Sequence record: MH992122.1
Source of the DNA: Escherichia phage OLB35
Direction: 5' to 3' (one strand)
Length of the DNA: 64,000 bases
This document shows, one piece after another, positions 28,466 through 64,000 of the stretch. The stretch's first letter is position 1. Each line of letters starts with the position of its first letter. The translations under genes and the position numbers were made by a program. A model generated the notes under the pieces. It saw nothing but the letters and a program-made list of their open reading frames with translations. It searched no databases and was not told where the DNA came from.

Positions 28466-30552
28466 TATCCTTGAACAAATTTAAATGGAACCGATTCCAA
28501 ATCCATTAAAGATGCTAACAGTTTCAATCCTTTAGGAGCACTAGTTTTTTCTACAAATGTGGAGAACGATACCGGCTCATCTGATTCGATTTCACCAGTC
28601 ATAGCAACCACCTCGCCTGTTTCCATGAGAACATCGCCATCGTAAATGACTGCTTCATCCAACTGGTCCGAGGACATGACTTCAGCTTGAATAAATTTAA
28701 GGTTGGATTCTAAACCTGCACCGGTGTCAGATGACGCATCTGTAATTTTATTTATCTGCAAGAGAATGCCTCTAGGCAAAATAATTTCTTGCTCATTAGG
28801 GTGATTACTCAACTGTCCTGGATAAATCACGTTAACTTTATGAGCGCCATCAATAGCCCATCCAACGTTAACACGGATTTGTTCTGGTGCATGCATAGCT
28901 GTTCTTACTTGACTAGGAGAAATAGTAACACCTTCGTCATTATTGTCAATGCTAAGCTCTTTGCGAACTTCTTCAGGAGCAAGTCCAAGGGCAACGTTCT
29001 CTTTAAACCCGCCGAAAATAATAGGAGCTAGTGAAGTAGAAACATAGTTTCTGAAGTAGAATACCTTATTTTTAACCATTGCTTCGTAAATAGGCATTCT
29101 GATAGACTGAGCTCTATACAACGTTAGTCCTTCAGGTAAACGGTCTCCATTTAAAAACGCCGAATCAAGACCATCAATAGCGCGTTTAACTTCATCTTCA
29201 TCTGCAACATCATAAAAATCCGGTTTATAACGTCCTAACAACATATTATTGATATCGGTATACGCAGAAGAGGCATATTCACGAATAGCTCGTTTTTCAG
29301 CAACAGAGTATTGTTTAGGGTCACGATTCATTGTTATATTAAAGGTGCCTCTAGCCGATTCTCGTGCATAAGTATACATCACATTAGACAAGAACGCTGA
29401 TTTACGTTGTTTCCAAGTTTTTTCAGATACTTCAGCTAAAACGTCGTCAGCCAGTTGGAAATTATCTCGTCTAAAATCTTCAAACCATTCGTCTCTAATA
29501 GAGTCTGCAATTTCGTTTGCAGCTTCAACAAAAGCAGCTAATGCTTTAACAGATGTTGTTTTTTCAGTTTTAATTTTCTTAGCAAACTTTTCTAAAGTCG
29601 GCTTAATAACACTACCATAAGAAACTTCATCAGCAAATCTAAAGGATTCATCAATACGATTATAAATCTTATTTTCGATATCAGCAACTAAAGTGCCTTT
29701 TGCTGTAGACGATGCTTGGGCTAGTACGATTTCATATGCTTCAGGAAGTAATTCAGCTGTAGCTGGGCCACTAACTTCTTTAGCAGAATTTTCGTATTTC
29801 TGGAATAGCTCACCTTCTTGGCGGTCAGCTTCTAAAGATTGACTTGCTGCAATAGCGCGACGAGAAATTTTAGTACGAGCAATAACAGGCTTATCTTTAC
29901 GTTTTTCTTCTACAGCAGCAATAGAACCAGCGATAGCCGTTTCTTTGGTGACTTTTTCGCCAGTCTTTTTACTCACATAAACTTCACCAACATCAGAATC
30001 TACTTTCGTGTACAACTCTGTGTTAATGTTAGGGATGCCTTTAATATCTTCAATGTTGGCATTTTTACGAACCATCATCACATATGTGTGTTTACCTGTG
30101 AATTGATACATTGCAGACAATACTTTAAAACGACCACCGGTTTTAGTAGAAACTAAACGAGCAAGAAGAGTTTGAAGTTGTTGTCCACGTCCTTTCAATT
30201 TCTTGGTAGGGAATCGGAACAAAACTGCATCCATACGAAGAGCTTTAACCTGTTCATACACTGTATTGAAAATGGTGTTGATTGCATCAATAGGAGCAGG
30301 ACCAAGACCATTTTTCAATTCAGCGAGATTACCCTTTTCAGAAAGACTCATAATAACGACATGAGCGTATTTGTCACCAAGTTTAACTTGTTTTACAGCA
30401 TCGCCTTCGGAAAGGTAAGAGAATAAACGAACTACGATGTTTGTATCGATATCACCAATTTTCCAGACTTGTGGAACTTTGGCTTTAGGGTTCAAATTGA
30501 CGACAGGAAGACTGCCTTCAGATTCAAACACTTCATTTAATTGTTCAGACAT
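28465..30552 (-). CDS. alt: Alt ADP-ribosyltransferase (head-packaged)
   Basis: 695 aa (T4 Alt 682); position between 54 and DNA ligase. Confidence 0.9.
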   Translation of the reverse strand: MSEQLNEVFESEGSLPVVNLNPKAKVPQVWKIGDIDTNIVVRLFSYLSEGDAVKQVKLGDKYAHVVIMSLSEKGNLAELKNGLGPAPIDAINTIFNTVYEQVKALRMDAVLFRFPTKKLKGRGQQLQTLLARLVSTKTGGRFKVLSAMYQFTGKHTYVMMVRKNANIEDIKGIPNINTELYTKVDSDVGEVYVSKKTGEKVTKETAIAGSIAAVEEKRKDKPVIARTKISRRAIAASQSLEADRQEGELFQKYENSAKEVSGPATAELLPEAYEIVLAQASSTAKGTLVADIENKIYNRIDESFRFADEVSYGSVIKPTLEKFAKKIKTEKTTSVKALAAFVEAANEIADSIRDEWFEDFRRDNFQLADDVLAEVSEKTWKQRKSAFLSNVMYTYARESARGTFNITMNRDPKQYSVAEKRAIREYASSAYTDINNMLLGRYKPDFYDVADEDEVKRAIDGLDSAFLNGDRLPEGLTLYRAQSIRMPIYEAMVKNKVFYFRNYVSTSLAPIIFGGFKENVALGLAPEEVRKELSIDNNDEGVTISPSQVRTAMHAPEQIRVNVGWAIDGAHKVNVIYPGQLSNHPNEQEIILPRGILLQINKITDASSDTGAGLESNLKFIQAEVMSSDQLDEAVIYDGDVLMETGEVVAMTGEIESDEPVSFSTFVEKTSAPKGLKLLASLMDLESVPFKFVQG

Positions 30553-54667: not shown

Positions 54668-57600
54668 ATGGTTGACATCAAACGTAAGTTCAGGGCCGAA
54701 GATGGTCTTGACGCAGGCGGTGATAAGATAGTTAACGTTGCGCTTGCTGACCGCACAGTTGGCACCGATGGCGTGAACGTTGACTTTTTGGTGCAAGAAA
54801 ACACCGTACAGAATTATGACGATACGCGCGCGTATACAAAAGATTTTATTGTTCTTTATGATAATCGTTTTTATCAAGCTTTAAACGATATTCCAGCTCC
54901 GGCAGGCCCTTTCTCTTTGGCTAAATGGAAGGCAACTCGTACAGATGCAGAATGGATTACAGTTCAAGGCGGAGATTTCCAATTATCAGTAGGTAACTCT
55001 ATCGCGGTTGATACTTCAGCTGGCACTGATATTAATTTCACTTTGCCTCAAAATCCTTTAGATGGCGATACAGTTATTTTGTCTGATATTGGCGGTAGAG
55101 TAGGCTATGTAAAAGTTCAAATTACTGCAGCGGCTCAAAGTATTGTAAACTTTAGAGGACAACAGGTTCGTTCAGTTTTAATGACGCACCCAAAATCTAA
55201 AATGGTCTTCATTTTTAGCAACCGCCTATGGCAAATGTATGTTTCTGATTACGAACGTAATGCAGTCACAGTAACTCCTGCTAAGCCATATCAGGCGCAA
55301 CCTAATGATTTTATCATTCGACGTTTTACATCAGCCGCTCCTATTAATATTACATTGCCTCGTAATGCTAATAATGGCGATATTATTAATTTAGTTGATT
55401 TAGACAAATTAAACCCATTATATCACACAATTGTCAAAACTTACGATGATACAACTTCTATACGAGAAGCTGGTGTTCATGTAGCAGAAGGACGTAATAC
55501 TGCGGAAGCATTCTTTGTTTATGATTCTGCTAATAGCTTATGGCGTGTTTGGGAAGGTGACCAGAAATCTCGTTTACGTATAGTTCGTAATGATACTGAT
55601 TTACGCCCTAATGAAGAAGTTCTTGTTTTTGGAACTAATAATGATACAATCTCGACGGTAAATCTTACTTTGCCTACAGATATTTTGTCTGGTGATACTG
55701 TTAAAATATCGTTGAATTATATGCGTAAAGGGCAAACTGTAAAAATTAAAGCTGCTGAAGGCGATACAATTGCTAGCAGTATTTCTTTATTACAGTTCCC
55801 AAAACGTTCAGAGTATCCACCTGATGCACAATGGGTTTCTGTTAGTGAGCTGGAATTTAATGGCGATACTTCGTATGTACCTGTACTTGAGTTAGCTTAT
55901 ATAGAAGATTATTCATCTGAAACAAAATATTGGGTAGTTCAACAAAACACTGTAACCGTCGAACGAGTCGATGCATCGAGCAATACAACTCGAGCTCGTT
56001 TAGGTGTTATTGCTCTTGCTTCTCAAGCGCAAGCAAATGTCGATTTAGAAAATGCTCCTGGTAAAGAACTGGCTATTACTCCGGAAACATTAGCAAATCG
56101 TACAGCAACTGAAACTCGTCGTGGTATTGCTCGTATTGCAACAACTGCACAAGTTAACCAGAATACCGATTTTGCATTCCAAGACGACTTGATTATTTCT
56201 CCTAAGAAATTGAACGAACGTACAGCAACTGAAACCCGTAGAGGTGTTGCTGAAGTTGCAACTCAGGCTGAAACTAATGCTGGCACAGATGATACCACTA
56301 TTATTACTCCTAAGAAATTGGATGCCCGTCAAGGTTCTGAAGTTTTATCTGGTATTGTAAAATACACATCTACGACTGGTACTACAGCGGCTACTGTTCG
56401 TGGTAATGCTGGGACTAACGTTTATAACAAAGCCGTAGATAATTTAACTATTTCTCCAAAGGCTCTTGACCAGTATAAAGCTACCCCTACTCAACAGGGC
56501 GCAGTAATTCTTGCTATTGAAAGTGAAGTTATCGCTGGTGAATCACAAGCCGGTTGGGCTAATGCTGTAGTGACCCCTGAAACACTACATAAGAAAACTT
56601 CTACTGATGGACGTATTGGTTTAATTGAAATTGCTACGCAAGCAGAAACTAACACTGGAACTGATTATACTAGAGCAGTAACGCCTAAGACGTTAAATGA
56701 TAGGAAAGCTACGGAAGGATTATCCGGCATAGCCGAAATTGCTACGCAAGTTGAATTTGATACTGGAACTGACGATACTCGTATCTCGTCTCCACTGAAA
56801 ATTAAAACTCATTTTGATTCTTCTGACCGTACCAGTGTTAATTCTGATTCCGGACTTATTGAAGAAGGAACCTTGTGGAACCATTATACTCTTGATATTT
56901 CTAAAGCAAATGAAACACAACGTGGTACACTTCGCGTAGCGACTCAGGCAGAATCTAATGCCGGAACTTTAGATGATGTTCTTATTACTCCTAAAAAACT
57001 TTTAGGGACTAAGTCCACTGAAACGTCTGAAGGTGTGATTAAGGTTGCTACTCAAGATGAAACTGTAACGGGAACTTCCACTAATACCGCTGTATCACCT
57101 AAGAATTTAAAATGGATTGTCCAGGATGAACCAACATGGGCTGCTACTACGGCAATTCGTGGATTCGTTAAAACTTCATCCGGTTCTATTACATTCGTTG
57201 GTGACGATACTCAAGGTAGTACCCAGGATCTGAATCTTTACGAGAAAAATAGTTATGCTATTTCTCCATATGAATTAAACCGTGTACTTGCTAACTATTT
57301 GCCATTGAAAGCTAAAGCCGTAGATAGTAATCTGTTAGATGGTCTAGATTCTCTCCAGTTCATCCGTAGAGACATCGACCAGACGGTTAATGGTTCTTTA
57401 AGTCTTACTAAACAGACCAACCTGAGTGCTCCTTTAGTATCTACAAGCACTGCTTCTTTTGGATCTGAAGCATCTGTTACTCGTAGATTAACTCTTAATG
57501 ACTCTAGCGGTTCCGAAATAGTTTTCACTAAAGGAACCCAATCTCTTAGTAATAAAGAGAATTTCGTTGTTAGAGCATGGGGTAATAGCGCTACAGATGG

Positions 57601-58501
57601 TGCCCGTGATACAGTATTTGAAGCTGGTGACGAAACCGGATACCATTTCTATTCTCAGCGCGCTTCTGATAATAAAGTATCATTTAATATTAATGGAACA
57701 CTTTATTCAACAGGCATTGTTTCTACAAATGGATTAAATGTTACAGGTGTTTCTACCTTTACCGGGCCTATTAGTGCTACAGGCGAAATTGTTTCTAGTT
57801 CTCCTATTGCATTCAGAGCTATTAACGGTAACTATGGTGTTATGCTTTATAATGCTGGTAACAGTTCTTATATTGCATTAACTAACTCAGGTGACCAGAC
57901 CGGGACGTTTAATAACTTACGCCCGATTACGATTAACAATGCCACAGGATTGGTTCGTCTTGACAACGGTGTTCAAATCACAAGTGGCGCAACAATAACT
58001 ACCGGTGGGTTAACTGTAAATAACAGGATTATTTCTAACGGCGTTAAAACTGCTACGGTTTATACCGATAAACCAACAGCTTCTACTGTAGGTTTTTGGT
58101 CTATTGACATTAACGATTCTGCTGTATATAGCCAATTCCCTGGATACTGGACGCGTGATAACAAAGGTAACCGTGACCAAGAAATTAAATATCCTGGTAC
58201 TTTGACTCAATTTGGTAATAGCTTAGATTCGCTTTATCAGGATTGGATTTGTTATCCTACAGGTGCAAATGGTGGTAGTATTCGTTATACTCGTACCTGG
58301 CAGAAAAATAAAGATGCTTGGACTTCATTTGCAATGGTATTTGATAGTGGCAACCCACCTTCACCTAGCGATGTCGGTGCTATCCCATCTGATAATGCTG
58401 TTATTGGAAACCTTACTGTTCGAGACTTCTTACAATTAGGAAATGTGAGAATTGTTCCAGACCCGGTTAACAAAACCGTTAAATTTATATGGGTTGAATA
58501 A
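54668..58501 (+). CDS. 34: Long tail fibre proximal subunit gp34
   Basis: 1277 aa (T4 1289); internal tandem repeat motif; late promoter at 54626. Confidence 0.95.
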   Translation: MVDIKRKFRAEDGLDAGGDKIVNVALADRTVGTDGVNVDFLVQENTVQNYDDTRAYTKDFIVLYDNRFYQALNDIPAPAGPFSLAKWKATRTDAEWITVQGGDFQLSVGNSIAVDTSAGTDINFTLPQNPLDGDTVILSDIGGRVGYVKVQITAAAQSIVNFRGQQVRSVLMTHPKSKMVFIFSNRLWQMYVSDYERNAVTVTPAKPYQAQPNDFIIRRFTSAAPINITLPRNANNGDIINLVDLDKLNPLYHTIVKTYDDTTSIREAGVHVAEGRNTAEAFFVYDSANSLWRVWEGDQKSRLRIVRNDTDLRPNEEVLVFGTNNDTISTVNLTLPTDILSGDTVKISLNYMRKGQTVKIKAAEGDTIASSISLLQFPKRSEYPPDAQWVSVSELEFNGDTSYVPVLELAYIEDYSSETKYWVVQQNTVTVERVDASSNTTRARLGVIALASQAQANVDLENAPGKELAITPETLANRTATETRRGIARIATTAQVNQNTDFAFQDDLIISPKKLNERTATETRRGVAEVATQAETNAGTDDTTIITPKKLDARQGSEVLSGIVKYTSTTGTTAATVRGNAGTNVYNKAVDNLTISPKALDQYKATPTQQGAVILAIESEVIAGESQAGWANAVVTPETLHKKTSTDGRIGLIEIATQAETNTGTDYTRAVTPKTLNDRKATEGLSGIAEIATQVEFDTGTDDTRISSPLKIKTHFDSSDRTSVNSDSGLIEEGTLWNHYTLDISKANETQRGTLRVATQAESNAGTLDDVLITPKKLLGTKSTETSEGVIKVATQDETVTGTSTNTAVSPKNLKWIVQDEPTWAATTAIRGFVKTSSGSITFVGDDTQGSTQDLNLYEKNSYAISPYELNRVLANYLPLKAKAVDSNLLDGLDSLQFIRRDIDQTVNGSLSLTKQTNLSAPLVSTSTASFGSEASVTRRLTLNDSSGSEIVFTKGTQSLSNKENFVVRAWGNSATDGARDTVFEAGDETGYHFYSQRASDNKVSFNINGTLYSTGIVSTNGLNVTGVSTFTGPISATGEIVSSSPIAFRAINGNYGVMLYNAGNSSYIALTNSGDQTGTFNNLRPITINNATGLVRLDNGVQITSGATITTGGLTVNNRIISNGVKTATVYTDKPTASTVGFWSIDINDSAVYSQFPGYWTRDNKGNRDQEIKYPGTLTQFGNSLDSLYQDWICYPTGANGGSIRYTRTWQKNKDAWTSFAMVFDSGNPPSPSDVGAIPSDNAVIGNLTVRDFLQLGNVRIVPDPVNKTVKFIWVE
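56096..57120 (+). repeat. In-frame tandem repeats inside gene 34 (about 40-aa units)
   Basis: Near-identical 27-nt stretches (CGTACAGCAACTGAAAC(T/C)CGT(C/A)G(T/A)GGT) at 56098 and 56219; protein motif ATQAE.N.GTDDT.IITPKKL recurs at least five times. Confidence 0.7.
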
Positions 58502-58509
58502 GAGGTTAT

Positions 58510-59634
58510 ATGGAAAAATTTATGGCAAGGTTTGGACAGGGATACGTCCAAACGCCGTTTTTATCGGAAAGCAATTCAGTTAGATTTAAACTAAGTATAG
58601 CGGGTTCATGCCCGCTTTCAACAACTAATCCGTATATTTTGTTCCAAAATGAGCCTTTAGGGTTGCAGTCTTTTGGTATTGGACTAAATGTTAGGGTAAT
58701 AAATCCGGAAAATGGAACTATAGTTGATAGTAAATTATACAATTTTGCGCCTACAAATAATGCAACTTCGGCCGCGTTTATTTCGTTTGTTAATACATAC
58801 GCAGATAATTTCATTTTCGCATTTATTTCTAATAACAAATTTAATTTGCCGCCAGAAATAATTGAATGGTTTAAAGCTGCTGGGAGTTCAGTTATACCGT
58901 CAATTGAAGTTGCTAGTCTTGTTGATATTTCATATTCAGCGTTTTATGTTTCAGGTAAAAATACTATTGCATTAGAACACATAAAATACAGTAATAAGAA
59001 AACAATTTCTGATTACGCAACTCCATTAGATATTGTATATGACTCTATTGCTGATATAGGTGCTACCGGCTATCCTAGACGTACATATGAAGCTCTAGAA
59101 ACGTTTTTATCTCCTGTTGGAGGAACTAACAATGAAATAAAAAGGGTGCCTACATCATCCCTTGTTACTCCTATCGCAAACTATGGATTAAAGCCTACAG
59201 ATTTTCTTTATTTGAAATTTCAATTAATGGCTGATGAAGCATTACTAGAGGAAGGAACCACAAGACTTTCAATTCGTTTCTTTAAGACTCCATCTAGCTC
59301 TCCTATATTGTCTAAAGATATAAACTTTGACGGAACTGCTGGAGTGTGGAAGTTATACGAAGAATATGTTGAAATACCAGCCGAAGCCGATGGCTTTACA
59401 GTATATTGTTACCGTACGGCCCCAGTCGGTCAAGGTGGACTAAGAAATGTTATTTTCACTGAAGTATCATGTAACGGAAGTATAGCAAAACCTGCCGAGT
59501 TTGGCCTAAATGGTATTCGTGCTAATTACATCGATGAATCATTAATTGGTAATGATATAATGGACTTGCCTACCCAGTTATCTAACGACACGGGTAAGGT
59601 ATTTGGGCAAGAATTTAAAGAGTACACAGAATAA
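58510..59634 (+). CDS. 35: Long tail fibre hinge (knee) protein gp35
   Basis: 374 aa (T4 372). Confidence 0.9.
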   Translation: MEKFMARFGQGYVQTPFLSESNSVRFKLSIAGSCPLSTTNPYILFQNEPLGLQSFGIGLNVRVINPENGTIVDSKLYNFAPTNNATSAAFISFVNTYADNFIFAFISNNKFNLPPEIIEWFKAAGSSVIPSIEVASLVDISYSAFYVSGKNTIALEHIKYSNKKTISDYATPLDIVYDSIADIGATGYPRRTYEALETFLSPVGGTNNEIKRVPTSSLVTPIANYGLKPTDFLYLKFQLMADEALLEEGTTRLSIRFFKTPSSSPILSKDINFDGTAGVWKLYEEYVEIPAEADGFTVYCYRTAPVGQGGLRNVIFTEVSCNGSIAKPAEFGLNGIRANYIDESLIGNDIMDLPTQLSNDTGKVFGQEFKEYTE

Positions 59635-59693: not shown

Positions 59694-60350
59694 ATGGCCG
59701 ATTTAAAAGCCGGAAGTACAGTTGGTGGTTCCGTCATATGGCATCAAGGCAATTTTCCTTTAATGCCAGCTGGCGATGACATCCTATATAAAACATTTAA
59801 ATTATACACCGAATATAACAAGCCAAAAGCGGCTGATAACGATTTCGTATCTAAAGCAAACGGCGGGACATATCTCAAAAAGGTAATCTTTAACGAAGGT
59901 GTTGCAGTCAAAACAGCTGATGACCAAACGAATGGTATTTTTTCTGGTGGTGGTGACGCCGCGACATTCGACCAAACAAACATGGATATTGTTTCATGGT
60001 ATGGTATTGGGTTTAAATCATCTCAAGGTACCGGTGAAAGAACTGTTGTAATTGATACTCGCACCGGTAATATAAGTTCTAAAGGCGTTATTGAAGCATC
60101 TCAATTCAGAGCCACAACGTTAGCACCTTTAAATAATTATGACCTTACTCGCAAAGATTATGTTGATAGTCAAATAAATACAGTTAATGCTAATGCAAAC
60201 AGTCGTGTACTCCGTTCAGGAGATACTATGACCGGGGCGCTAACCGCCCCAAACTTTTTCTCACAGAATCCTGCATCTCAACCCTCGCATGTTCCGCGAT
60301 TTGACCAAATTGTTATTAAGGATTCTGTTCAAGATTTCGGCTATTATTAA
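59694..60350 (+). CDS. 36: Long tail fibre distal connector gp36
   Basis: 218 aa (T4 221); late promoter at 59660. Confidence 0.9.
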   Translation: MADLKAGSTVGGSVIWHQGNFPLMPAGDDILYKTFKLYTEYNKPKAADNDFVSKANGGTYLKKVIFNEGVAVKTADDQTNGIFSGGGDAATFDQTNMDIVSWYGIGFKSSQGTGERTVVIDTRTGNISSKGVIEASQFRATTLAPLNNYDLTRKDYVDSQINTVNANANSRVLRSGDTMTGALTAPNFFSQNPASQPSHVPRFDQIVIKDSVQDFGYY

Positions 60351-60358
60351 GAGGACTT

Positions 60359-63300
60359 ATGGCTACTTTAAAACAAATACAATTTAAAAGAAGCAAAACT
60401 GCAGGAGCACGTCCTGCTGCTTCAGTATTAGCCGAAGGTGAATTGGCTATAAACTTAAAAGACCGTGTACTTTTTACTAAAGATGACCAAGGAAATATTA
60501 TTGATCTAGGTTTTGCTAAAGGTGGTAGTATTGACGGGAATGTTATTCATACTGGCAATTACAACCAAACTGGTGATTATACTTTAAATGGCGTCTTCAC
60601 ACAGACGGGTAATTTTAATTTAACTGGTATTGCTCGAGTAACTCGCGATATTATTGCCGCCGGGCAGATTATGACTGAAGGCGGTGAACTTATTACAAAA
60701 AGTTCAGGCACAGCACATGTTCGTTTTTTCGATAACAATAGTCGCGAACGCGGAATCATTTATGCCCCGGCTAATGATGGTTTAACTACACAAGTACTTA
60801 ATATCAGGGTTCAAGACTACGCCGCTGGTGATGAAAGCACCTATGCATTTTCGGGCAGCGGACTATTTACTTCACCTGAAGTATCAGCATGGAAATCTAT
60901 TTCGTCTCCACAAATTCTGACCAACAAAGTCATTACAAATGGGAAGAAGACCGGCGATTATGATATCTATTCATTATCAAATAACGTTCCATTGTCAGAA
61001 AGCGAAACGGCTATTAACCACCTCCGTGTCATGCGAAATGCTGTTGGTTCTGGTATTTTCCACGAAGTTAAAGTTAATGATGGAATAACCTGGTATAGCG
61101 GAGATGGATTAGACACTTATCTTTGGTCGTTTACCTGGAGCGGTGGAATTAAATCCAGTCACTCTATTTCTATCGGTTTACCAGGCGGTAATAAAGATTA
61201 TTCAATATTAGGACCATCTTCGATTGCTCTTGGCGATAATGACACCGGGTTAAAATGGCACCAGGATGGATATTTCCATACAGTAAACAATGGAACAAGA
61301 ACTTTCATCTACGGCCCTGCAGAAACACAAAGCCTTAGAAAAATGGTTATGGGTTATTCTCCAGATGGGCTTCTTATGACAACGCCACCGACAGAAAACT
61401 ATGCTTTGGCTACTGTTGTTACTTACCATGATAATAACGCATACGGTGACGGTCAAACTCTTTTAGGATATTATCAAGGCGGTAACTATCATCATTATTT
61501 TCGCGGTAAGGGTACTACAAACATTAATACTCACGGCGGTTTGTTAGTTACTCCAGGTAATATTGATGTTATTGGCGGTTCTGTTAATATAGATGGTAGA
61601 AATAATTCTTCTACACTAATGTTTAGAGGCAACACAACAGGATACAGCTCGGTTGATAATATGGATATTAAAGTTTGGGGTAATACGTTTGTTGATCCAA
61701 GCGGAGGTATCCGTAAAAACGTCATGGAAATTTCTGATGCAACTAGTTGGATGAGCTATATTCAAAGACTTACAACAGGTGAAGTAGAAATGAACGTTAA
61801 CGGTTCATTTGAATCATCTCGTGTTACTGCTGGAGATAGGGGAGTTTACACAACAGGCGAAATTTCATCTGGAGCAGTGAATGCGCTTCGTATTTGGAAC
61901 GCAGATTATGGAGCTATTTTTAGACGTTCAGAAGATAGTCTTCATATTATTCCAACTGCTTACGGTGAAGGTAAACACGGCGATATCGGTCCACTTCGCC
62001 CGTTTAGTATGGCTTTAGATACTGGTAAAGTTACTATTCCAGATTTACAATCAAAATACAATACGATCACTGCGAACGGCTATATTAAATTTGTTGGCCA
62101 TGGTGCAGGCGCTGGTGGTTATGATATTCAATATGCTCAAGCAGCTCCTGTTTTCCAGGAAATCGATGATGATGCTGTAAGCAAATATTATCCTATTGTT
62201 AAGCAGAAGTTTTTAAACGGTAAAGCAGTTTGGTCTTTAGGTACCGAAATTAATTCGGGTACATTCGTTATTCATCATCTGAAAGAAGATGGATCACAAG
62301 GCCATACATCTCGTTTTAATCAAGACGGCACAGTTAATTTCCCTGATAACGTTCTGGTCGGCGGCGGCGAAGCTGCTATTGCTCGTAATGGTAATATTTT
62401 CTCGGATATTTGGAAAACGTTTACTTCAGCAGGCGACGTAACTAATATTCGCGATGCAATAGCTACTCGTGTTGCTAAAGAAGGCGATACGATGACAGGC
62501 GCTCTTTGGATTAATAAAGATGCTGCTGGAATAGTTCTTAATCCTCCTTTGGCTAGTGATTCATCATTTATTCGTTCTGATACGGCCGGGGTCAATAATT
62601 GGTATATTGGTAAAGGCGGTGCCGACAATGGTCTAGGTTTTTACAGTTACATTACACAAGGCGGTGTATACATAACAAATACCGGTGAAATATCGCTTTC
62701 TCCTCAAGGACAAGGAACATTTAATTTTAATAGAGACCGCCTTTATATAAATGCTAGTCAATGGATTGCACATAAATCTGGCGCTTGGGGCGACCAATGG
62801 GGCTTAGAAGCTCCTGTATTTGTGGATTTTGGTAGCGTTGGTAATGATAGTTATTATCCTATTATCAAAGGAAAATCTGGTATTACTAATGAAGGTTATG
62901 TATCTGGTGTTGATTTCGGTATGCGACGCATTACTAATACATGGGCACAAGGTATTATCCGTGTAGGTAATCAGGAAAACGGTTCCGACCCACAAGCTAT
63001 CTATGAATTTCACCATAGCGGTACTTTTTACGCACCCGGTCTGCTTAAATCTAGTCGTGTTTCTGCGGGTGGTGGTGACCCTGCGTGGGGTAGTCCTTGT
63101 ATTGTATTAGGTGACAACGATACCGGATTTCTTTGGGAAGCAGATGGTATTTTCAACGCATATGCAAACGGCCAAGGCGTATTCAGTTTTAGAGCTGGTC
63201 TCGCACAAACGTTCGGTAACGTATCGTTAAACGTTAACGCAGGTATGTATGTTCGTGATAACATTGATGTTAACGATGTTTATATCCGTTCTGATATTCG

Positions 63301-63610
63301 TTGTAAGTCAGAAATTAAGCTTATTAAGAACGCTCAAGAGAAATCTAAACTCTTAGGCGGCTATACTTATCTGCTTAAAAACTCTGTTACAGACGAAGTT
63401 AAACCGTCTGCAGGTTTGATTGCTCAGGAAGTTCAAGAAGTATTGCCCGAACTTGTTTCTGAAGATAAAGAGACCGGACTGCTTCGTTTGAACTATAACG
63501 GTATTATCGGTTTAAATATTGCTACAATCAACGAGCATACTGACGAAATCAAGGAATTGAAATCCGAAATTGCTGAGTTGAAAGCATTAATTAAATCATT
63601 GATAAAATAA
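60359..63610 (+). CDS. 37: Long tail fibre distal subunit gp37 with C-terminal intramolecular chaperone domain
   Basis: 1083 aa; last ~106 aa (from SDIRCK...) carry the endosialidase-type chaperone signature [15 protein letters not shown]. Confidence 0.9.
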
Positions 63611-63641
63611 TAAAAGGGCCTTCGGGGCCCTGGAGGTTTAT

Positions 63642-64000
63642 ATGGCAGTAGTAGGAATTCCTGGTTGGATTGGGACTTCAGCCGTCGCTGAAACAGGCCA
63701 ACGTTGGATGACAGCAGCTTCTAGAGAATTGCGTCTTGGTAACCCGTCTTGGATGTCACAATTTGCTGGTAGGTCCCGTGAGATTATTCATACGCTTGGA
63801 GCTGACCATAACTTTAATGGTCAATGGTTCCGAGATAGATGTTTTGAGGCGGGTAGTGCGCCTATAGTGTTTAATATCACCGGAAATTTGGTATCATATT
63901 CTAAAGACGTTCCTTTATTCTTCATGTATGGTGATACACCAAATGAATATGTTACTTTGAATATTCATGGTGGAGTTCATATGTGGGGACGAGGTGGTAA
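63642..64000 (+). CDS. 38: gp38 receptor-recognising adhesin, T2/K3 type (3-prime end outside the window)
   Basis: N-terminus [22 protein letters not shown]....[43 protein letters not shown] matches the conserved N-terminal domain of T2-type gp38 adhesins, not T4 gp38. Confidence 0.85.

Follow-up and report, generated by a model that had tools for sequence, protein, structure and literature searches.

The distal end of the long tail fibre operon of Escherichia phage OLB35, a Mosigvirus, very probably encodes a receptor-binding module of the T2/S16 type, in which the fibre protein gp37 ends in a self-cleaving chaperone and is capped by the adhesin gp38. This assignment is based on the window, i.e. 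the entire stretch of 64,000 nt that was analysed, and rests on the identity of the protein domains, on conserved catalytic and docking residues, on gene order and on the contrast with T4; the data contain no evidence to the contrary. The Pfam scores for Peptidase_S74, Gp38_N and GP38 are all well above their cut-offs, and the resemblance to the S74 and gp38 families is therefore beyond chance. The arrangement as such is already known from T2 biochemistry in 1986, from the structure of S16 in 2018 and from curated Pfam models. The structure of the S16 long tail fibre tip, a (gp37)3-gp38 complex with the PDB code 6F45, is reportedly the work of Dunne et al. in 2018.

A mechanism that could link these components begins with gp37, which would be synthesised as a precursor of 1083 aa. 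The S74 chaperone, which makes up the final 106 residues, would drive trimerisation and, starting from the C-terminus, the folding of the beta-helical tip; following the correct folding of the trimer, Ser978, activated by Lys983, would cut every chain between Arg977 and Ser978 and so release the chaperone. The exposed tip (approximately aa 909–977) would be capped by one copy of gp38: three tryptophans of its three-helix N-terminal domain, Trp9, Trp22 and Trp37, would fit into three pockets related by symmetry. The distal, glycine-rich part of gp38, encoded beyond the window, would bind an outer-membrane protein by means of its hypervariable loops. Chaperone-driven folding of the trimer, cleavage, 3:1 capping by gp38 and receptor recognition by gp38 are steps that we infer from S16, T2/T6, T5 and K1F.

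The long tail fibre operon and its phage

The operon encoding gp34, gp35, gp36, gp37 and gp38 comprises five ORFs on the + strand, which also carries all features described below, and occupies the window's final 9.3 kb. The first three ORFs encode proteins of 1277 aa (54668–58501), 374 aa (58510–59634) and 218 aa (59694–60350), the last of which matches the Pfam family Phage_T4_gp36. Gene 37 (60359–63610; 1083 aa plus stop) encodes the precursor of the distal subunit of the long tail fibre, in agreement with the annotation of its relatives, and Pfam places a Gp34_trimer domain in the interior of the protein and Peptidase_S74 at its C-terminus. Gene 38 starts after a gap of 31 nt downstream of the gene 37 stop codon with an ATG at 63642, and its 5′-part, 119 codons, is seen before the window ends at 64000.

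The backbone of the phage, represented by positions 30000–54000 of the window, shares 96.7% identity with Shigella phage Shf125875 and approximately 96% with Escherichia phage AlbertHofmann. The records of both phages are classified as Mosigvirus, and the OLB35 window likewise belongs to a Mosigvirus, an RB69-like T-even phage. Gene 38 measures 780 nt (259 aa) in the Shf125875 and AlbertHofmann records, and the holin gene t comes next. Scans for Rfam families and tRNAs gave no match anywhere in the window.

The short intergenic region between genes 37 and 38 harbours a GC-rich hairpin (AGGGCCUUCGGGGCCCU, 63615–63631) with a 7-bp stem in the minimum-energy fold; it separates the stop codon of gene 37 from the ribosome-binding site of gene 38. 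The Shine-Dalgarno sequence GGAGG (63632–63636) follows immediately, 5 nt upstream of the ATG at 63642. The hairpin is kept in T4, RB51, Klebsiella phage 5N and the Mosigvirus relatives, including a compensatory change in the stem, and its folding energy, computed over a 65-nt stretch, is unremarkable when compared with shuffled sequences (z −0.67). A function as a + strand terminator between genes 37 and 38 was considered and rejected, because no T-run follows the hairpin on the 3′ side of this strand.

The gp38 adhesin, receptor use and host range

The visible part of gp38 carries two adhesin domains. Residues 1–42 (63642–63767) form the N-terminal attachment domain Gp38_N with Trp9, Trp22 and Trp37 (PF21721; E 2.9e-21, 75.6 bits, cut-off 25), and residues 47–119 (63780–64000) represent the start of the adhesin body (PF05268, GP38; E 5.8e-30, 105.2 bits, cut-off 25), a match that covers positions 1–73 of the 218 in the model, with 73 residues being available. 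Among solved adhesins, the fragment matches 9v85_A, a GFP-gp38 fusion (E 3.6e-43), and the gp38 of S16, 6F45_D (E 4.9e-26). The likeness to S16 gp38 runs from the three tryptophans through the start of the beta-helix to the ...GRGG that leads into the glycine-rich domain; Trp9, Trp22 and Trp37 align with the S16 tryptophans and are invariant among the relatives in alignment A1. In S16 gp38, three tryptophans at the apices of three N-terminal helices enter symmetry-related pockets in the gp37 tip (PMC6851490).

Over the visible 119 aa, gp38 is 98% identical to its counterpart in AlbertHofmann, 82% identical to that in RB51 and 100% identical to that in Shf125875; this part of the protein is, in other words, the same as in an already known phage. 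The AlbertHofmann record labels its gp38 'adhesin tip for distal long tail fiber'. A previous reading of the same DNA, made from the letters alone and referred to here as the sequence-only reading, had recognised an N-terminal gp38 attachment domain in the protein start that it quoted, and this start is indeed found at the ATG at 63642. It had also placed the glycine-rich, hypervariable part of gp38 outside the window. This agrees with the fact that the fragment ends with ...WGRGG at the window edge, precisely where this region begins in the 259-aa relatives: in the full-length gp38 proteins of Shf125875, AlbertHofmann and RB51, ...WGRGG is followed by glycine runs that are separated by variable segments. 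The 119 residues seen here correspond to part of a protein of about 259, and an intact adhesin body is assumed.

Which outer-membrane protein OLB35 recognises can be approached through its relatives. In the genera Tequatrovirus, Mosigvirus and Krischvirus, receptor use (Tsx, OmpF, OmpA) goes along with, and can be predicted from, the similarity of Gp38 (PMC12032242). OmpF is needed by AlbertHofmann (PMC8594841) and, among other factors, by RB69 and RB51 (PMC3157838). Since these three phages use OmpF, the best guess for the OLB35 receptor is OmpF as well, conditional on the unseen C-terminal half of gp38 resembling that of the relatives.

Besides gp38, the short tail fibres and the core of the LPS also contribute to host range in T-even phages (PMC8594841). 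Mosigvirus isolates need an intact LPS inner core, a requirement that correlates with the short-tail-fibre allele (PMC8594841), and the gp37 of OLB35, which has 89–91% protein identity with its nearest Mosigvirus relatives Shf125875 and AlbertHofmann, diverges most from them at aa 151–350, where the identity drops to 48–68% in some 50-aa blocks. Both observations would suit a scenario in which host range is mainly dictated by patches of the gp37 shaft, by the short tail fibres or by the LPS core, and in which gp38 merely provides generic porin binding. Such a division of labour is improbable, however, considering that Gp38 similarity follows receptor use in all three genera (PMC12032242), and that the OmpF-dependent AlbertHofmann (PMC8594841) has a gp38 N-terminus that is 98% identical to that of OLB35. 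The gp37 allele of OLB35 itself is a new mosaic, which is ordinary for tail-fibre genes. Even less likely, and with nothing positive speaking for it, is a new receptor specificity in the unseen half of gp38 or a second, lateral receptor site within gp37 aa 151–350. Gene 38 could also be defective in its part beyond the window, and nothing suggests so. With gp38 as the adhesin, gene 38 is the gene to target in any prediction or engineering of the OLB35 host range.

The C-terminal chaperone of gp37 and its predicted cleavage site

The extreme C-terminus of the 1083-aa gp37, comprising the 106 residues from Ser978 (nt 63290–63292) to the stop codon, is a predicted intramolecular chaperone (aa 978–1083; 63290–63607) that consists of a Peptidase_S74 core at aa 978–1033 and a helical tail. 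The sequence-only reading had interpreted the last ~106 residues of gp37 as an endosialidase-type S74 chaperone and had suggested a Pfam search for Peptidase_S74 as a means to verify it. This search matches PF13884 to aa 978–1033 (E 9.4e-12; model positions 1–57 of 58) with 45.5 bits, to be compared with the curated cut-off of 22 bits; together with the 6F45 match and with Ser978 and Lys983 being placed as in T5 pb1, it upholds the interpretation. The position at which that reading let the domain begin, 63290, falls exactly on Ser978, and the strings it quoted as well as the helical tail are all present in gp37.

In a phmmer search of the PDB, the last 136 aa of gp37 match the S16 gp37 chain 6F45_A (E 1.8e-23) and the human MYRF autocleaving domain 7dc3 (E 0.014); the K1F and T5 chaperone structures are not among the matches of this search, and the link to T5-type fibres was made by tblastn and alignment. 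By tblastn, the 106-aa domain turns up in tail-fibre genes from 1595 phage records; examples are the T2-like gp37 of RB51 (59.5% identity), Klebsiella T4-like phages and T5-like L-shaped fibres, as well as rV5-like, Vibrio, Thermus, Burkholderia and cyanophage fibres. The tail that follows the S74 core is readable as a heptad-like helix in the sequence; a single-sequence AlphaFold2 prediction of gp37 aa 963–1083 results in a poor model (pLDDT 45, pTM 0.27), in which the long C-terminal helix is the sole confident part.

The predicted autocleavage site, Arg977^Ser978, is followed by the stretch Ser978-Asp-Ile-Arg-Cys-Lys983 (63290–63307), which contains the putative catalytic Ser/Lys pair. The site was examined in an alignment of 11 rows (A2), composed of the MYRF chain 7dc3 and 10 phage fibre sequences from the OLB35 window, RB51, S16, Klebsiella 5N and T5-like, Thermus, Vibrio, cyanophage, rV5-like and Burkholderia phages. 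All 10 phage fibres have a serine at the Ser978 position, Asp979 and Lys983 (+5) are invariant in 11/11 rows, and a G..IAQEV..P..V motif is invariant or near-invariant. The MYRF chain keeps the lysine at +5 and has the sole alanine of the alignment at the serine position, putatively the result of a Ser-to-Ala mutation.

In T5 pb1, the chain is cut at Thr1263^Ser1264 and Lys1269 activates the serine, a mechanism that is common to the K1F endosialidase (PMC4690869). The spacing between serine and lysine is the same in OLB35 (Ser978/Lys983) and T5 pb1 (Ser1264/Lys1269); for the upstream T5 residues that sense correct folding, Asp1239 and Arg1250, no equivalents could be mapped in OLB35 gp37. In S16, autocleavage of the last 113 residues of gp37 at DLNVS^SDRRIKK exposes the gp38 docking surface, and the corresponding site in the fPS phages is DVYIR^SDGRLKI (PMC7917993). 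The OLB35 site, DVYIR^SDIRCKS, is in register with both. On account of this register and of the T5-like Ser/Lys spacing, autocleavage of OLB35 gp37 is predicted to occur between Arg977 and Ser978, producing a mature protein of 977 aa and a released fragment, Ser978–Lys1083. Mature gp37 would accordingly be better modelled with 977 residues instead of 1083.

The S74 domain might, in principle, be a remnant that no longer cleaves and is retained as a structural cap or trimerisation module on a full-length gp37. This is very hard to reconcile with a Ser978/Asp979/Lys983 motif that is intact and conserved, and with the geometry of the S16 complex, in which an uncleaved chaperone would cover the docking surface of gp38 (PMC7917993). 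Moreover, the domain is 86–100% conserved in relatives, a level of conservation that indicates selection.

Cleavage at the predicted site would leave Arg977 as the new C-terminus of an S16-like distal tip (aa 909–977; 63083–63289). The last 175 residues of gp37, aa 909–1083, match 6F45 chain A, the distal fragment of S16 gp37 that was crystallised together with gp38, with an E-value of 5.7e-30, and within this match the tip aligns with chain A residues 22–91. The S16 structure suggests that the tip acts as the docking surface for gp38 in OLB35 too (PMC6851490). Overall, the tip and chaperone of the two phages are homologous across aa 909–1083 and have the cleavage motif in the same register, whereas they differ in sequence (~45% identity in the chaperone region; DVYIR in OLB35 versus DLNVS in S16 before the cut), in the length of the released fragment (106 aa, predicted, versus 113 in S16) and in that OLB35 belongs to the genus Mosigvirus with E. 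coli/Shigella as host.

Comparison with other phage fibres

The K1F endosialidase and T5 pb1 share with OLB35 gp37 the same Pfam domain, the serine and the lysine at +5, the C-terminal location on a trimeric fibre and the helical tail. Their mature fibre bodies, in contrast, are unrelated, and it is the fibre or spike itself that binds the receptor, without a capping adhesin.

In T4, gp37 itself is the adhesin and gp38 is a chaperone. OLB35 resembles T4 in the order of the genes, in the intergenic UUCG hairpin and in the N-terminal two-thirds of gp37 (35% identity over OLB35 aa 1–680), beyond which the two gp37 proteins diverge: T4 gp37 has Collar and Phage_fiber domains according to Pfam, ends in a collar and receptor-binding domains, and lacks S74. 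T4 gp38 is an unrelated 183-aa chaperone without a Pfam match, and a BLASTP comparison of OLB35 gp38 with it gives a 5-residue match only (E 10), i.e. no similarity. The idea that OLB35 gp38 is a T4-style assembly chaperone that stays outside the virion, leaving gp37 to bind the receptor, could appeal to several database records in which the homologous gene is labelled 'distal long tail fiber assembly catalyst' or 'assembly chaperone'; these names have been inherited from T4, and the idea has next to no chance of being correct in view of the dissimilar T4 gp38, the strong matches to adhesin Pfam families and solved adhesins, and an OLB35 gp37 that is devoid of the T4 collar and receptor-binding tip and carries an S16-type tip and S74 in their place. 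The sequence-only reading, which had favoured a T2-type gp38 adhesin over the T4 chaperone, is thus corroborated by both Pfam adhesin models, by the matches to 9v85 and 6F45_D and by the dissimilarity to T4 gp38. The point has a bearing on annotation, since many records of close relatives still name gp38 'assembly catalyst' or 'chaperone' after T4; the protein would be better described as the receptor-binding adhesin, with the chaperone residing inside gp37.

The T2/T6/K3/Ox2-type members of Tequatrovirus, such as RB51, have the same gene order as OLB35, an S74 domain at the end of gp37 and both Gp38_N and GP38 in the next gene. They differ in sequence: the RB51 chaperone domain is only ~60% identical, and the gp37 tip of OLB35 (aa 901–1000) is 36–50% identical. 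The gp37 of T2 and T6 is reportedly cleaved at its C-terminus and capped by gp38 (PMC3157838, with reference to Drexler et al. 1986). Klebsiella phage 5N combines a gp37 that bears S74 with a downstream protein of 175 aa that has Gp38_N only. An S74-ended gp37 and a Gp38_N gene hence co-occur in the phages examined (OLB35, RB51 and Klebsiella 5N), a pairing that is absent in T4. At the level of sequence, the joint occurrence of a self-cleaving gp37 end and a gp38 attachment domain would fit a mechanism in which the chaperone is removed before gp38 caps the tip.

A mosaic gp37 and a probable shared module in the fibre

Compared block by block with its nearest relatives, Shigella phage Shf125875 and Escherichia phage AlbertHofmann, gp37 (60359-63610) is a mosaic. 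The tip, the chaperone domain and most of the remaining shaft are 80-100% identical to these relatives, and a divergent stretch at about residues 151-350 (nt 60809-61408) contains blocks in which identity to one or the other phage falls to 48-68%. Pfam also recognises the Gp34_trimer domain (PF21446, 32.8 bits) as an internal copy within gp37, at residues 452-550 (61712-62008), and gp37 also matches the solved structures of the gp34 C-terminus, 4uxe and 5nxf. This points to a module that the proximal and distal half-fibres have in common.

An apparently different head on the docking module

Klebsiella phage vB_KpnM_5N (our sequence L011, positions 1-2371) encodes a Jiaodavirus gp37 homologue that is annotated as 'L-shaped tail fiber protein' and carries, at its C-terminus, a match to the S74 chaperone domain of the window gp37. 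It is followed by a 175-residue protein annotated as 'assembly catalyst'. This second protein possesses the Gp38_N attachment domain and lacks the glycine-rich GP38 body; it appears to combine the same docking module with a different head.

The hairpin between genes 37 and 38

Scans of the entire 64 kb (1-64000) for tRNA genes and for Rfam families at the gathering threshold found neither. Between the stop codon of gene 37 and the Shine-Dalgarno sequence of gene 38, positions 63615-63631 form a GC-rich hairpin with a UUCG-type loop. Sequence comparison shows it conserved at the same position in T4, the T2-like phage RB51, Klebsiella phage 5N and the Mosigvirus relatives, with a compensatory change in the stem among these phages (GGGGC/GCCCC versus GGGCC/GGCCC). 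A search for a T-run 3′ of the hairpin on the + strand found none, and its terminator-like appearance is confined to the - strand. Stable C(UUCG)G hairpins have long been known from T4 intergenic regions, and this one resembles them.

An ILEI match in gp35

The proximal hinge connector gp35 (58510-59634) matches the Pfam model ILEI (PF15711, 'Interleukin-like EMT inducer') at residues 58-131, with a score of 30.3 bits (cut-off 27). T4 gp35 also exceeds the cut-off (35.9 bits), and the match seems to be a feature of gp35 in general, one that has drawn little comment.
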